Assembly: GCF_003018255.1 (NCBI RefSeq)
Contig: NZ_CP027440.1
Length of the DNA stretch: 64,000 bases
Direction: 5' to 3' (one strand)
DNA from: Escherichia coli
Lineage (GTDB): Bacteria > Pseudomonadota > Gammaproteobacteria > Enterobacterales > Enterobacteriaceae
The notes under the pieces: generated by a model
The model's database searches: none
Told to the model about the DNA's origin: nothing
The model's input: the letters and a program-made list of their open reading frames with translations, nothing else
Shown: one piece after another, positions 26,124-34,063 of the stretch
Numbering within the stretch: the stretch's first letter is position 1
How the letters are laid out: each line of letters opens with the position of its first letter
Program-made: the position numbers and the translations under genes

Positions 26124-27665
<1,542 letters not shown>

Positions 27666-27789
27666 AAAAGTTTGATGCTCAAAGAATTAAACTTCGTAAT
27701 GAATTACGTGTTCACTCTTGAGACTTGGTATTCATTTTTCGTCTTGCGACGTTAAGAATCCGTACCTTCGAGTGCCCACACAGATTGTC

Positions 27790-27809
27790 TGATAAATTGT
27801 TAAAGAGCA
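27790..27809 (-). promoter_or_regulatory. rrn leader boxA antitermination element
   Basis: Reverse complement reads TGCTCTTTAACAATTTATCA; positions checked against an ORF frame. Confidence 0.8.
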
Positions 27810-27849
27810 GTTGCGACGCGGCTTTCAGCTCACTGTCGCGAGGTGGCGT

Positions 27850-27877
27850 ATATTACGCTTTCCTCTTTCAGAGTCAA
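27850..27877 (-). promoter_or_regulatory. rrnD P2 promoter
   Basis: Minus strand: -35 TTGACT (27877-27872), 16-bp spacer, -10 TAATAT (27855-27850). Confidence 0.75.
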
Positions 27878-27957
27878 CCCCGAATTTCAGGATTTTTTCT
27901 CTTTGTTGTTACGACCATCTTGTGAAGTGTTTCACGTTGTCGTCTCAACGGAGGCGC

Positions 27958-27985
27958 ATTATAGGGATCCCAATTTTTTGCACAA
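27958..27985 (-). promoter_or_regulatory. rrnD P1 promoter core
   Basis: Minus strand: -35 TTGTGC (27985-27980), 16-bp spacer, -10 TATAAT (27963-27958), GC discriminator GCGCC; A/T-rich tract upstream (27986-28080) fits the UP element/Fis-site region. Confidence 0.75.
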
Positions 27986-28137
27986 GTACTTTTTTGATCT
28001 TTTTTTCTGTTTGTTGCTTTTTCACCCTTTTTGCTGCATTCGCACACAAAACGGTGCTTTTTTGCATGCTAAAAGACTTGCACAAGGCCAATAATGCACC
28101 CAAAGTCATTAGTAAATCATTTATTGTTGAGGTGAGT

Positions 28138-28692
28138 ATGTCTGATGTTTTACGCCCATACCGCGATCTTTTTCCACAAATCGGCCAGCGCGTAATGATC
28201 GACGATAGCAGCGTCGTGATTGGTGACGTTCGTCTGGCTGATGATGTGGGGATCTGGCCGCTCGTTGTGATTCGTGGAGATGTACATTATGTACAGATCG
28301 GAGCACGCACCAATATCCAGGATGGCAGTATGTTGCATGTCACTCATAAATCCTCGTACAACCCAGATGGCAACCCATTAACCATTGGCGAAGATGTCAC
28401 TGTTGGTCACAAGGTGATGCTCCACGGCTGCACCATTGGCAATCGAGTTTTGGTTGGGATGGGCTCAATTTTACTTGATGGCGCAATAGTAGAAGATGAT
28501 GTGATGATTGGTGCGGGTAGCCTGGTCCCACAAAATAAACGGCTGGAGAGCGGATATCTGTATCTCGGTAGCCCCGTCAAACAGATCCGCCCGTTAAGTG
28601 ATGAAGAGAAGGCTGGGTTACGCTATTCCGCGAAGAATTACGTGAAATGGAAGGACGAATATCTGGATCAGGGTAACCAGACCCAACCTTGA
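28138..28692 (+). CDS. yrdA: Hexapeptide-repeat (gamma-carbonic-anhydrase-like) protein YrdA
   Basis: 184 aa from ATG 28138 (MSDVLRPYRDLF); left-handed beta-helix repeats; ORF-track start 27811 runs through the rrnD promoters. Confidence 0.92.
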   Translation: MSDVLRPYRDLFPQIGQRVMIDDSSVVIGDVRLADDVGIWPLVVIRGDVHYVQIGARTNIQDGSMLHVTHKSSYNPDGNPLTIGEDVTVGHKVMLHGCTIGNRVLVGMGSILLDGAIVEDDVMIGAGSLVPQNKRLESGYLYLGSPVKQIRPLSDEEKAGLRYSAKNYVKWKDEYLDQGNQTQP

Positions 28693-28925
28693 TCATCTTC
28701 ACTTTGTTCCTGAATTAAGTTTTCCGCTTCTTCTTCCAGGTCCCAGCGATGCTGACGAAAACTCGCTAACCACTGTTCTGGCGTATCTCCAGTAAAGCGA
28801 TACGCCAGACTCTCGCCAGAGATCGCACATGTCAGTTGCATACCATTCACGAGAGCGGGAAAACATACACATCTTTTATTCTCGTCCCACTCTTCCCTAT
28901 CCGGAAACTGGATGGCCTGATTCAC
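28668..28925 (-). CDS. yrdB: DUF1488 protein YrdB
   Basis: 85-aa acidic ORF; 3' end overlaps yrdA 3' end by 25 nt on the opposite strand. Confidence 0.85.
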
Positions 28926-29740
28926 GCTGACAATTCCTGTTGCAATAGTTTGATGACCGGTTCTACATCAGGCAGAACGCCATGCCAAAGAAGGAAGGCA
29001 TGAGCCGCCTGTGCCACCAGCATTCCTAAACCATCAGCATTACGCTTTGAGCCTCGCTGCTCACACCATGCCAGAAAAGGAGTTTTTCCTTTCTGATAGA
29101 ACATGTCATAGCAATAAATGCCTGGATGAATAAGCGATGACGGGATCGCCGGAATATCACCACTGATGCCACTGGATGTTGCATTAATAATGAGATCAAA
29201 CTCATGACCTTCCAGTTCGTCCATACCCAACGCCTGAATACTGCCAGTGTGCGCAAACAATTTAGCCAACTCTTCCGCGCGGGATACCGTCCGATTAGTG
29301 ATTGTCACCGCACAGTCCAGGGAAAGAAGTGGCAGTAGTACGCCGCGAGAAGCTCCACCAGCGCCGATGAGCAGAATACGTAAACCAGGACGGATAAAAG
29401 ACAGACGTTCCAGATCGCTTAACAAACCTATACCATCGGTATTGTCACCCAGCAGGCGTCCATCTTCTAACCGCTTGAGGGTATTAACAGCACCAGCCAA
29501 CGCTGCCCGTTCAGTAAGCTCATCCGCTCTGGCAAAAGCCTCTTCTTTAAAAGGTACCGTCACATTCGCACCTTTACCACCAGCACTAAAGAAAGCGTTC
29601 AGTGTGTTGATGAAATCATTGATGGGTGCCAACACGCGCCCATAGGGATGTTCAATATTCAGTTGCTGAGCAAATTGCTGATGAATGAATGGCGATTTGC
29701 TGTGGGCTATCGGATTACCAAAAACAGCATAGGTTTCCAT
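28922..29740 (-). CDS. aroE: Shikimate 5-dehydrogenase
   Basis: 272 aa from ATG at 29740 ([20 protein letters not shown]); ORF-track start is a 9-codon upstream extension. Confidence 0.95.
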
Positions 29741-29744
29741 TATG

Positions 29745-30317
29745 TTACCCCTGTCGAAACAGTTCACCCGTCAGGGCATCGCGGATTTCTGAAGGATTTA
29801 AACGCCCCCCCGTTTCACCAGGCACAACCGGGAACGCCGCGCCAAATTGTGCGCGAACTTCGTCTACTGTTCGACAAGGTGGCAATCCACTCAAGTTGGC
29901 ACTGGTAGAAACCAGCGGTTTACCATAAGCCTGGCACAAAGCAACCACCAACGGATGGTCGGTGACTCGTACAGCAAGCGAATCAAAGCGGCCCGTCAAC
30001 CAGCGCGGTGTTGTCGCAGGCGCGGGAAAGACAAAGGTGACAGGACCTGGCCAGCGGGAAAAAATGGTTTCACGCTGCGCATCAGTCAGCATGGTGTCAT
30101 CAATATAGGGTTTAAGCTGCTCGTAATTTGCCGCGATTAAAATCAGCCCCTTATCAACCGGACGCTGTTTTAACTCCAACAGTCGCATCACTGCTGTTTC
30201 GCTATCAGGATCGCACCCGACACCGAAAACGGCTTCCGTTGGATAGGCGATGACACGTTTTTCATTGAGGACATCTATCGCAGCTGCGATAGCGTCTCCT
30301 TGCAGGTTATTATTCAC
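29745..30317 (-). CDS. tsaC: L-threonylcarbamoyladenylate synthase TsaC (YrdC), t6A tRNA modification
   Basis: 190 aa; start reads as GTG (window CAC at 30315-30317) followed by NNNLQ; YrdC/Sua5 fold recognised. Confidence 0.9.
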
Positions 30318-30321
30318 GTTA

Positions 30322-30864
30322 TTATTCCGCCGAAACCGGCTTTCCACATTGTTTACTGGCACAAAAGTGTTTTACACCCTGCGCGGTTTTCTTTTCGATG
30401 AGTAGCGGATAATGACACTCAGGGCATTCTCCAGCTATGGGTTTGAAGTTAATGGCAAATTGACACTCCGGGTAGCGATCACAGGAGTGAAATGTTTTGC
30501 CATAACGGGAACGGCGCTGGACCAGATGGCCCGTCCGACATTGGGGACAGGTAATTGCTGTTTCGTCCGGTTTATCGATAAGTTCGGTATGTTCGCATTC
30601 AGGGTAGTTACTGCAACCAATAAACATACCAAAGCGTCCCTGGCGTAATACCAGATTTGCGCCACATGCAGGGCAAACCTGCCCCTCCAGAACTTTGACA
30701 ATATGTCCATCCGCTGAAGATTTCAGAGGACGGACGTAGTCACACGCCGGATACTGTGAGCATCCAAGAAACGGACCGTGTTTCCCGGATCGAATAACCA
30801 GTTCAGCCCCGCACTTTGGGCAGGACTCATTATTACGCACCGTGAACAGTGCTGATTTCGCCAT
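30322..30864 (-). CDS. yrdD: Topoisomerase-I-type zinc-ribbon DNA-binding protein YrdD
   Basis: 180-aa ORF with four repeated Cys-x2-Cys...Cys-x-Cys zinc-ribbon modules. Confidence 0.9.
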
Positions 30865-30892
30865 AACAACTTATGCTGAATTAAAGAAATGA

Positions 30893-31366
30893 TTAATGCA
30901 GCATACCTTCATTCACTTCAAAGAGTAATTCTTCCATTTGCTGGTACGCATTTTCGCAGCCCGGAATATTGAACAACACCATCAGGATTACCCATTTCAG
31001 GTCTTCCAGGTCGAACTCTGCGGTATCCAGCGCGAGCACTCGCTCTATCACCATTTCACGGGTTTCAAGGTTAAGCACCTGAATTTGCTCAAGGAAAAGC
31101 AGAAAACCACGACAGCTGGCATCCAGCCTTTCACACTCTTCAGGGGTATAAATACGCATGGAGAGTGGATCAGAGGCCAGTTGCATCGGTTCTGCCAGTC
31201 CTTCCTGATAATCCGCAAGCTTTTCCAGCCAAAGCAGGGCATTGTAGATATCTTCTCGATCAAATCCTGCGTCGGTAAGATCCTGTTCAAGTTTGTCTTG
31301 ATCCACACGCAACTCAGCTTCTGTGTGAATATAGGTTTCAAACAAATACATTAGTACGTCGAACAT
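30893..31366 (-). CDS. smg: Smg protein (DUF494)
   Basis: 157-aa acidic ORF recognised from translation. Confidence 0.92.
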
Positions 31367-32462
31367 GGCATGCCCTCCTCAATCGGACATAGCCGCCGGG
31401 TACAGCTGCGATCCATCCTGCTAACTCCAGTTCGAGTAGTTGAGTTACTACCTCTGGCACAGGTTGGCCGGCACGTTCAGCGACGACGTCAACAGGTGTT
31501 ACCTCATCTCCTACGTTAGCCAGGAGCTCAGGAAATGGCAATGCCACGTCTTCCTGATCTGGTGAATAAAATGAATTTTCAGGGGCGTCTGGCAACCAGT
31601 GCAATCCAAATTGCAAGTTTTCCAGAATTTCTTCCGGTTCCGTCACAAGAATCGCACCTTGTTTTATTAACCAGTGAGGCCCTTCGCTTCCCGGATTCCC
31701 TAATGGACCCGGCAAGGCAAAAACTTCACGCCCCTGCTCAAGCGCACAACGTGCTGTCACCAGCGAACCACTGCGCAAAGCCGCTTCCACCACCAGTACA
31801 CCTTTACTTAGACCACTGATAATGCGATTTCTTCGTGGGAAATTGTAAGCAAGGGGTGGAACATCGAGGGGAAATTCCGAGACAAGAGCACCACCATGTT
31901 CAAGCAAACTGGTAGCCAGTCGGGCATGGCGACGCGGATGAATGGTATTAAGTCCATTCCCCAATACAGCAATGCTGACGCCATTTACCTGTAAGGCCGC
32001 TTTATGCGCCACACCATCGATTCCACGCGCCAGTCCACTCGTAATTGTCACTCCACGCGTCGCCAGAGTTTCGCAAAATAATCGTCCCCATCGCTCGCCA
32101 TACCATGAATGCGCCCGACTCCCCACTACGGCAAGCTGAAATGAATGCAGCGCGTGCAGTTCTCCTTCAACAAACAGTGCGCCGGGGTAATCTGTCGTCG
32201 CAAGAAGTTGAGGAGGATAAAATTCGCTGTCCGCAGGAATTAAATGATGGTTGGGTTGCTCCAACCAAGAAAGTGAGCTTTCGATACTCTTTCGCGGAAA
32301 TGAAAGAAAGCGTTGTGCCTGCCGCAATGTAAGCCCAGTTTGCTGCAATACAACCGCATCAATATTCGACTGTTTTGCCAGCCAGTGAGCTATACGGACC
32401 ATATCATCGCCGTACAAGCTGCTGATGCTCATTAAACGCAGCCAAATTTCTGTATCGACCAT
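31338..32462 (-). CDS. dprA: DNA processing protein DprA (Smf)
   Basis: 374-aa ORF; Rossmann-like DprA domain; 3' end overlaps smg start by 29 nt. Confidence 0.95.
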
Positions 32463-32591
32463 CCTTATCTCCCTGCCATAAGCAGCCTTAGCAATCTTTG
32501 CGATTGGTCAGTGATGCTGTCAATCAGAGGGGGATTTGTCTAGAATAGAAGAAATAATCTTTCTAACTCCTGAACACATCTCTGGAGATTT

Positions 32592-33101
32592 ATGTCAGTT
32601 TTGCAAGTGTTACATATTCCGGACGAGCGGCTTCGCAAAGTTGCTAAACCGGTAGAAGAAGTGAATGCAGAAATTCAGCGTATCGTCGATGATATGTTCG
32701 AGACGATGTACGCAGAAGAAGGTATTGGCCTGGCGGCAACCCAGGTCGATATCCATCAACGTATCATTGTTATTGATGTTTCGGAAAACCGTGACGAACG
32801 GCTGGTGTTAATCAATCCGGAGCTTTTAGAAAAAAGCGGCGAAACAGGCATTGAAGAAGGATGCCTGTCGATCCCTGAACAACGTGCTTTAGTGCCACGC
32901 GCAGAGAAAGTTAAAATTCGCGCCCTGGACCGCGACGGTAAACCATTTGAACTGGAAGCAGAGGGTCTGTTAGCCATCTGTATTCAGCATGAGATGGATC
33001 ACTTGGTCGGCAAACTGTTTATGGATTATCTGTCACCGCTGAAACAACAACGTATTCGTCAGAAAGTTGAAAAACTGGATCGTCTGAAAGCCCGGGCTTA
33101 A
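32592..33101 (+). CDS. def: Peptide deformylase
   Basis: 169-aa ORF; metal-binding motifs EGCLS and HEMDH. Confidence 0.98.
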
Positions 33102-33115
33102 GGATAAGAACTAAC

Positions 33116-34063
33116 GTGTCAGAATCACTACGTATTATTTTTGCGGGTACACCTGACTTTGCAGCGCGTCATCTCGACGCGCTGTTGTCTTCTGGTCATA
33201 ACGTCGTTGGCGTGTTCACCCAGCCAGACCGACCGGCAGGACGCGGTAAAAAACTGATGCCCAGCCCGGTTAAAGTTCTGGCTGAGGAAAAAGGTCTGCC
33301 CGTTTTTCAACCGGTTTCCCTGCGTCCACAAGAAAACCAGCAACTGGTCGCCGATCTACAGGCTGATGTTATGGTTGTCGTCGCCTATGGCTTAATTCTG
33401 CCTAAAGCAGTGCTGGAGATGCCGCGTCTTGGCTGTATCAACGTTCATGGTTCACTGCTGCCACGCTGGCGCGGTGCTGCACCAATCCAACGCTCACTAT
33501 GGGCGGGTGATGCAGAAACTGGTGTGACCATTATGCAAATGGATGTTGGTTTAGACACCGGAGACATGCTCTATAAGCTCTCCTGCCCGATTACTGCAGA
33601 AGATACCAGTGGTACGCTGTACGACAAGCTGGCAGAGCTTGGCCCACAAGGGCTTATCACCACGTTGAAACAATTGGCAGACGGCACGGCGAAACCAGAA
33701 GTTCAGGACGAAACTCTTGTCACTTACGCCGAGAAGTTGAGTAAAGAAGAAGCGCGTATTGACTGGTCACTTTCGGCAGCACAGCTTGAACGCTGCATTC
33801 GCGCTTTCAATCCATGGCCAATGAGCTGGCTGGAAATTGAAGGACAGCCGGTTAAAGTCTGGAAAGCATCGGTCATTGATACGGCAACCAACGCTGCACC
33901 AGGAACGATCCTTGAAGCCAACAAACAAGGCATTCAGGTTGCGACTGGTGATGGCATCCTGAACCTGCTCTCGTTACAACCTGCGGGTAAGAAAGCGATG
34001 AGCGCGCAAGACCTCCTGAACTCTCGTCGGGAATGGTTTGTTCCGGGCAACCGTCTGGTCTGA
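33116..34063 (+). CDS. fmt: Methionyl-tRNA formyltransferase
   Basis: 315-aa ORF ([20 protein letters not shown]); start codon reads GTG. Confidence 0.97.

Follow-up and report, generated by a model that had tools for sequence, protein, structure and literature searches.

We analysed a 64,000-nucleotide (nt) stretch of Escherichia coli DNA (contig NZ_CP027440.1, assembly GCF_003018255.1; hereafter the window, whose coordinates are used throughout) around a minus-strand string of six genes, dprA-smg-yrdD-tsaC-aroE-yrdB, and found that the last 206 nt of dprA, a segment that also carries the start of smg, are conserved base by base. This frozen block is robust as an observation and, as far as we found, undescribed. 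At its upstream edge lies the best-scoring sigma-70 promoter-like sequence on the minus strand of the region. The six genes, which share one strand, probably give polycistronic RNA, but the string is probably not a single uniformly coupled unit. On balance, we lean slightly towards a two-tier arrangement in which a promoter and a leader of ~140 nt inside dprA drive smg to yrdB independently of dprA.

The 3′ End of dprA Is Conserved at the Nucleotide Level

The block (Table 1) was delimited in an alignment over the whole string of 74 of the fetched loci, whose median identity to the window is 73%. In 90-nt windows, the fraction of invariant columns reached 0.89 and 0.81 inside the block, whereas no window of the def-fmt control exceeded 0.64. 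Fractions above 67% require invariant third codon positions. Where the encoded amino acid is invariant, the codon itself is invariant at 30 of 39 positions inside the block but at only 7 of 365 elsewhere (Fisher p ~1e-30). Leaving aside its last ~200 nt, dprA shows the weakest conservation of all six genes, with a third-position entropy of 1.34 in the same alignment. A short patch inside the block evolves normally, and we therefore attribute the freeze to selection rather than to recent transfer or a low mutation rate.

Of 5425 E. coli genomes, 5415 have the block at 99% identity or more, as a single copy. Pectobacterium and L083, a locus whose Smg is 77% identical, have it just as intact. At 52-62% Smg identity it has decayed, and in loci more distant than these it is unrecognisable. 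A DNA-pattern scan of metagenomes returned one true locus, nearly identical to a Vibrio-like locus described below (L084), together with five chance matches. In neither the RefSeq chromosome record nor that of MG1655 is the 3′ end of dprA annotated with a promoter, a leader or an RNA.

Third codon positions are also unusually quiet at two other gene ends. Just ahead of the smg/yrdD spacer, the patch 30893-30945 at the 3′ end of smg has a third-position entropy of 0.27, compared with a mean of 0.91 for smg, and the 90-nt window 30984-30895 contains 0.72 invariant columns. At the yrdD 3′ end, before tsaC, the corresponding value for the 24-nt patch 30337-30360 is 0.12, against a mean of 1.11 for yrdD. 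These patches may be ribosome-loading or coupling signals.

A Promoter-Like Site Lies at the Upstream Edge of the Block

Using a simple weight matrix, we scored ~20,000 minus-strand placements between 28600 and 32630, and TTGCCA-17-TAACGT within dprA came out on top. Its -35 hexamer matches the consensus at five of six positions and its -10 hexamer at three of six, including the critical A and T at its second and sixth positions (-11 A, -7 T). Both hexamers, third codon positions included, are invariant in all 74 species, while the four-fold degenerate site 31530 in the spacer takes every base (T in 40, C in 15, A in 11 and G in 8) and 31524 and 31523 vary too. In two Vibrio-like loci (L084, L094), both hexamers are identical to those of E. 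coli and all four differences are confined to the spacer. The site thus shows two features of a promoter, namely hexamers separated by 17 ± 1 nt and stronger conservation of the hexamers than of the spacer. The invariant run of the block begins at 31543, two bases ahead of the -35 hexamer. Transcription would be predicted to start near 31507-31505, giving a leader of ~140 nt up to the smg ATG.

We infer an active promoter, a leader-RNA role for the frozen segment and working translational coupling further downstream, which together would make up a two-tier arrangement. In the first tier, a promoter in the dprA-def spacer would serve dprA, and read-through into the genes beyond may occur. In the second, the internal promoter would start RNA synthesis near 31506 and produce a leader that doubles as dprA coding sequence. 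This RNA would supply the five genes from smg to yrdB, essential tsaC included, and free them from dependence on dprA, a competence gene. Translation of smg would begin from its own strong Shine-Dalgarno sequence and that of yrdD after a 28-nt spacer, and tsaC, aroE and yrdB are placed such that termination-reinitiation coupling could operate (4-nt gap, 4-nt gap and GTGA overlap, respectively). Partial Rho-dependent termination and RNA processing in yrdD, tsaC and yrdB may then grade expression along the string. The proposed independence from dprA is supported by symbionts that have lost dprA and yrdD and keep smg-tsaC-aroE, and Neisseria offers a precedent, in that dprA-smg-topA is co-transcribed there and topA is also expressed independently of dprA. 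Essential tsaC and widely retained smg are probably independent of the promoter of a competence gene.

Several points weigh against this assignment. The site falls below the threshold of our general promoter scan, which did not call it because only three of six positions of the -10 hexamer match the consensus, and the weight matrix that ranks it first was built after the site had already been noticed. Because the hexamers encode conserved DprA residues (LPF...ANV), constraint on the protein accounts for some of their conservation. A promoter accounts for ~30 nt of conservation rather than 206 nt, and ~170 nt remain unexplained by it. Both the block and the hexamers are absent from more distant taxa that retain the dprA-smg adjacency, and no homology to the block was found upstream of smg in the symbionts that lost dprA. 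Our search of the available E. coli literature turned up no start site mapped to the predicted position. Mendoza-Vargas et al. (2009) reported a single 454 read that starts inside dprA, 201 nt upstream of smg. This read shows that initiation inside dprA can occur, though not at the predicted site: it is the only published start read, it is a single one, and at -201 it lies ~60 nt upstream of the prediction at about -140. Finally, the smf/def spacer is the one entry for this region in a study of RpoD by systematic evolution of ligands by exponential enrichment (SELEX) (Shimada et al., 2014; PMC3946193), smf being the other name of dprA. With these points counted, the whole two-tier model, in which RNA initiated inside dprA feeds smg to yrdB, still seems to us a little better supported than not.

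Gene Order and Spacing Are Old and Widely Kept

The gene string itself is nothing new and corresponds to textbook E. coli annotation. As the original prediction had stated, it is a known organisation: of 5426 complete E. coli genomes, 5425 match the surrounding 5 kb (best match 99.9%, most 95-99% identity) and the gene order, and MG1655 (b4473, b3284-b3280) has the same genes, order, lengths and junction distances. That prediction had also given 4-nt gaps for tsaC/aroE and yrdD/tsaC, a 29-nt overlap of dprA with smg and divergence from def-fmt-rsmB, all of which are correct. It had counted five genes, omitting yrdB, the sixth, and had passed over the 28-nt gap between smg and yrdD.

For a wider comparison, we used 80 Enterobacteriaceae species, one genome each, whose Smg proteins are 89-100% identical. 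The gene order holds in 80 of 80, with the full set of six genes in 77 loci and the remaining three cut by contig ends. Every species has a dprA/smg overlap of exactly 29 nt. Overlaps of 4 nt between aroE and yrdB (75 of 77 species) and of 25 nt between yrdB and the convergent yrdA (71 of 77) are nearly as constant, as is a tsaC/aroE gap of 1-8 nt (78 of 79). The smg/yrdD spacer measures 22-30 nt throughout the set, and the yrdD/tsaC distance ranges from -11 to +6 nt, a range that is approximate because start codons in other species were projected from the E. coli proteins. Pectobacterium also has the complete six-gene string. Smg is the most conserved protein of the string, with an entropy of 0.11 at codon positions 1 and 2. 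The organisation is therefore old, already described and ordinary, and is inherited as a unit throughout Enterobacteriaceae.

Further afield, the string falls apart into modules. In the Vibrio-like locus L084 (1756-8477), inserted genes break the order: it reads LysM-dprA-smg-yrdD, then purK-purE on the opposite strand, then tsaC-hemF-aroE, and its dprA and smg are separated by a 2-nt gap rather than overlapping by 29 nt. In a distant locus (L088), dprA-smg is followed by full-length topA at the yrdD position. In two AT-rich reduced genomes (L087, 3781-5958, in the 708-kb genome AP014521.1; L089, 3729-5910), smg-tsaC-aroE lies beside def-fmt, and dprA and yrdD are lost. Retention of smg-tsaC-aroE without dprA in these symbionts suggests a housekeeping role of Smg that is linked to tsaC and not to DNA uptake. 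The original prediction had described the genes as functionally unrelated. This holds for tsaC and aroE, but dprA-smg-yrdD descends from an ancient and widespread dprA-smg-topA module, in which dprA stands directly before a DUF494 gene and a topoisomerase I (Topo I)-type gene follows.

In addition, YrdB in the window is 97.6% identical to MG1655 YrdB but only 87% identical to the E. coli and Escherichia albertii representatives of the comparison set (L002, L003), and divergent yrdB alleles therefore exist within Escherichia.

The String Is Probably Not a Single Uniformly Coupled Operon

The original prediction took the tight spacing as evidence for one translationally coupled operon, a conclusion that we find partly supported. 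All genes lie on the same strand at short or negative distances in an order conserved across species, and the geometry at yrdD-tsaC, tsaC-aroE and aroE-yrdB does suit coupling. The yrdD/tsaC gap, TAAC, contains a second in-frame TAA; the tsaC/aroE gap is CATA, with a Shine-Dalgarno-like AGGGG for aroE upstream of the tsaC stop; and the GTG of yrdB overlaps the TGA of aroE as GTGA. The two upstream junctions do not fit: yrdD starts 28 nt past the end of smg and lacks an obvious Shine-Dalgarno sequence, and the smg ATG precedes the dprA stop by 26 nt. Because a strong Shine-Dalgarno sequence stands in front of smg itself and the dprA stop is past the smg start codon, the 29-nt overlap is weak evidence for coupling. 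The dprA/smg junction has more the look of a separate point from which smg and the following genes begin to be expressed. Judged from these sequence features, the smg ribosome-binding site would argue against translational dependence on dprA at this junction.

To place published RNA ends on the window, we used the offset MG1655 coordinate = window + 3,401,098, which was checked on the 61-mers printed in the table of Adams et al. (2021; PMC7815308). In that study, Term-seq detected minus-strand 3′ ends at 31365 (MG1655 3432463), the second base of the smg start codon, where the end is not Rho-dependent; at 31158 (3432256), inside smg; at 30700 (3431798), 164 nt into yrdD, where it is Rho-dependent; and at 29826 (3430924), in tsaC, 86 nt before aroE. 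Minus-strand Rho termination regions lie at 30213 (3431311) in tsaC and at 28818 (3429916) in yrdB (PMC7815308). Attenuation within the string is thereby documented. The 3′ ends in smg and dprA are table entries that the study neither discussed nor validated (PMC7815308). Our own search found no intrinsic-terminator-like site at any junction of the string, and such sites were not enriched, with 7 found compared with 5.3 ± 2.3 in shuffled sequences. The original prediction had named internal promoters or terminators as what would divide the string into independent units, and the outcome is mixed: dprA contains a promoter-like site and published 3′ ends and Rho regions fall within the genes, but no intrinsic terminator separates them.

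That the six genes nevertheless form one transcription unit, read from the dprA-def spacer promoter and coupled throughout, with the block unrelated to initiation, we regard as unlikely. The junctions are indeed tight and conserved and free of terminator-like sites, with no enrichment over shuffles; dprA-smg-topA is co-transcribed in Neisseria by reverse-transcription PCR (RT-PCR; PMC5817196); the only reported RpoD-binding peak is in the smf/def spacer (PMC3946193); and in the transcriptome of a tgt mutant, tsaC and aroE change in the same direction. A single unit, however, leaves unexplained both the 206-nt freeze and the coincidence of its edge with the best promoter site, and it would make essential tsaC dependent on a promoter belonging to a competence gene that is itself poorly conserved. 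It must also accommodate the independent Shine-Dalgarno sequence of smg with the dprA stop downstream of the smg ATG, the internal 3′ ends and Rho regions (PMC7815308), and the symbionts that retain smg-tsaC-aroE without dprA. We found no full-length transcript data for the E. coli string, RT-PCR evidence of co-transcription coming only from Neisseria, and the six genes have no entry in the supplements, as far as these were available, of SMRT-Cappable-seq, Conway 2014, Kim 2012, Cho 2014 and, in part, Cappable-seq. Among the six genes, yrdD alone has been reported to be repressed by DNA relaxation.

RNA ends on the opposite strand were also recorded (PMC7815308). Plus-strand Rho termination regions lie at 31190 (MG1655 3432288), antisense to smg, and at 29074 (3430172), antisense to aroE. 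A plus-strand 3′ end at 28814 (3429912), antisense to yrdB, suggests that the yrdA transcript runs into yrdB.

The Block as a Possible Leader or Other Functional RNA

A promoter inside dprA leaves most of the block to be accounted for, and one possibility, which we offer tentatively, is that the whole block is a regulatory element, not yet described, of Enterobacterales. Such an element would combine an intragenic promoter with a leader RNA that is held base by base by a conserved partner, possibly Smg itself, and would set the levels of Smg and of the essential t6A enzyme TsaC independently of dprA; the 3′ end at the smg start would then represent a regulated state or a small RNA of ~140 nt. 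By analogy, binding of Smg to its own leader could possibly resemble that of ribosomal proteins to theirs. Adams et al. (2021; PMC7815308) noted that 3′ ends in leaders often mark regulation and that small RNAs arise from sites internal to open reading frames (ORFs) and from 5′ untranslated regions (UTRs).

Alternatively, the block could be a functional RNA irrespective of initiation, serving as a cis-element for smg translation or for the fate of dprA mRNA, or as a small RNA cut from dprA mRNA and ending at the smg start codon, in each case recognised by a conserved protein or RNA partner. We think this rather improbable as a separate explanation; it is compatible with initiation inside dprA and is largely nested within that model. 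Conservation extends ~140 nt past any promoter. The Term-seq 3′ end at 31365 comes directly after a predicted hairpin that covers the smg Shine-Dalgarno sequence, small RNAs with such ends from ORF-internal sites and 5′ UTRs are documented (PMC7815308), and by our reading the block has several GGA motifs, one of them within the Shine-Dalgarno sequence. Against this, the block folds no better than shuffled sequence (minimum-free-energy z = -1.33, -0.59 and +0.36), changes in locus L085 break many of the predicted pairs, and there is no U-tract terminator. RNAalifold on 10 and on 56 distinct block sequences gave almost no covariation, in a test without statistical power because the block is nearly invariant. 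The folding result also counts against the two-tier model. An Rfam search of 27600-33200 gave no match at E <= 1 apart from ribosomal RNA and its leader; within the block, even E <= 10 yielded only a chance small nucleolar RNA match (E = 5), and nothing there is tRNA- or tmRNA-like.

Overlapping coding is a highly improbable cause of the freeze: smg does lie in the +1 frame of dprA, with its Shine-Dalgarno sequence read in the dprA frame as the tandem rare codons AGG AGG, at which a +1 frameshift could fuse DprA to Smg, and a 21-codon ORF starting at 31416 is open in Enterobacteriaceae and in L085, yet none of these candidates would account for sub-block A. We rejected the 21-codon ORF, as its ATG is among the few variable sites of the block (GGA, GGG or GGC), and an antisense 49-codon ORF (31370-31519), whose start is variable and whose open length ranges from 30 to 65 codons across species. 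The programmed frameshift was likewise rejected, its only support being two singleton database proteins with scrambled, indel-like junctions. In these proteins (P0048, P0107), the winged-helix C-terminus of DprA is joined in frame to Smg, and the junctions resemble single-base indel errors at the 29-nt overlap.

Genes of the String and the dprA-def Spacer

Genes were called from an ORF listing and from the RefSeq annotation of an E. coli chromosome with 99.9% identity, and were checked against the sequence (Table 1); their protein families are assigned without ambiguity. The junction distances for dprA/smg, smg/yrdD, yrdD/tsaC, tsaC/aroE and aroE/yrdB are -29, +28, +4, +4 and -4 nt, and the yrdB 3′ end overlaps the convergent yrdA (28138-28692, plus strand) by 25 nt. 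DprA matches NCBIfam PRK10736 at 705 bits and contains the Pfam domains SAM_SMF, DNA_processg_A and DprA_WH. YrdD contains three copies of Pfam Zn_ribbon_Top1 (182 bits) and is a paralogue of the C-terminal region of Topo I.

Table 1. Features of the dprA-yrdB gene string and its surroundings (window coordinates; + or - gives the strand).
Feature	Position	Strand	Description
Frozen block	31338-31543 (206 nt)	-	dprA 3′ end; includes smg Shine-Dalgarno sequence and start codon; frozen at nucleotide level
Sub-block A	31543-31455	-	Part of frozen block
Normally evolving patch	31454-31431 (24 nt)	-	Within frozen block; amino-acid and synonymous changes
Sub-block B	31430-31338	-	Part of frozen block
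Candidate sigma-70 promoter	31513-31541	-	-35 TTGCCA (31541-31536), 17-nt spacer, -10 TAACGT (31518-31513)
smg Shine-Dalgarno sequence	31374-31380	-	GAGGAGG; 7 nt upstream of ATG at 31366; invariant across alignment
dprA (smf)	31338-32462	-	DNA-protecting/RecA-loading protein, 374 amino acids; first gene of string
smg	30893-31366	-	DUF494 protein, function not known, 157 amino acids; +1 frame relative to dprA
yrdD	30322-30864	-	Three topoisomerase-I-type C4 zinc ribbons, 180 amino acids
tsaC (yrdC)	29745-30317	-	L-threonylcarbamoyladenylate synthase, 190 amino acids, GTG start; NCBIfam PRK10634, 281 bits
aroE	28922-29740	-	Shikimate dehydrogenase, 272 amino acids, ATG start; NCBIfam family at 417 bits
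yrdB	28668-28925	-	DUF1488, 85 amino acids, GTG start; sixth gene of string; PDB relative 2gpi
dprA-def spacer	32463-32591	.	Divergent promoter region
def promoter	CTGTCA (32517-32522)-18-TAGAAT (32541-32546)	+	Called by promoter scan
Candidate dprA promoter	TTGACA (32523-32518)-18-AAAGAT (32499-32494)	-	Ranked second by weight matrix

On the plus strand, def begins at 32592, 129 nt from dprA, and is followed by fmt and rsmB. The -35 hexamer of def and a perfect minus-strand TTGACA overlap by five bases (32517-32523), in the manner of back-to-back divergent promoters, and the 8-nt core of the overlapping hexamers is invariant in the 74 species. In the spacer, ATTGACAG and TATTCTAGAC are invariant in these species, as is the def -10 hexamer. 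The RpoD SELEX peak falls in this spacer, and smf is treated there as its own unit (Shimada et al., 2014; PMC3946193). A search of 32463-32591 for CRP-S sites of Sxy-dependent competence promoters (22 bp, TGCGA-N6-TCGCA core) found none within two mismatches; a conserved TCGCA half-site is present.

Some side observations concern the flanks of the string. About 870 plasmid records (596 from Klebsiella and 258 from Escherichia) carry a 96-99% identical copy of def that corresponds to 32514-33109 of the window and runs from its -35 hexamer to just past the stop. The plasmid matches to the 5-kb region are these def copies, and we discarded them as not part of the string. At the other end, a sub-threshold Rfam match to the Yersinia small RNA Ysr197 (27787-28028, minus strand; 87 bits against a gathering score of 167) covers the rrnD promoter and leader, upstream of 16S. 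A strong 'orphan' Term-seq 3′ end at 27886 (MG1655 3428984) lies within this Ysr197-like region (PMC7815308).

Implications

Tight spacing alone over-calls the string as one coupled operon. What the comparison adds to the familiar annotation is a coding sequence of ~200 nt in which synonymous changes are not neutral. The block is relevant to recoding, to estimates of the ratio of nonsynonymous to synonymous substitution (dN/dS) for the DprA C-terminal domain, and to dprA knock-outs, which are possibly polar on smg and tsaC. It also provides a concrete handle on Smg, a protein whose function is not known and which is retained even in 0.7-Mb symbiont genomes.

Comparison With Known Systems

The rpsU-dnaG-rpoD operon and the ftsQAZ region of E. 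coli likewise pack unrelated genes on one strand and place promoters for downstream essential genes inside upstream coding sequence. In these systems, partial internal termination grades expression, and the internal promoters have been mapped experimentally, unlike the promoter inside dprA, which we read from sequence and conservation only. In gene organisation, the smf(dprA)-smg-yrdD-tsaC-aroE-yrdB string of E. coli K-12 MG1655 does not differ from that of the strain analysed here.

A related system is the dprA-smg-topA operon of Neisseria meningitidis, which is co-transcribed as judged by RT-PCR and in which disruption of dprA leaves topA still expressed (Hovland et al., 2017; PMC5817196). 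Both strings begin with dprA and smg and continue with a topoisomerase-I-type gene, and locus L088 shows the Neisseria order of dprA, smg and full-length topA. In E. coli, by contrast, the third gene encodes only the zinc-ribbon C-terminal part of Topo I, and tsaC-aroE-yrdB is appended to it. The 29-nt overlap and the frozen block were seen in Enterobacterales only.

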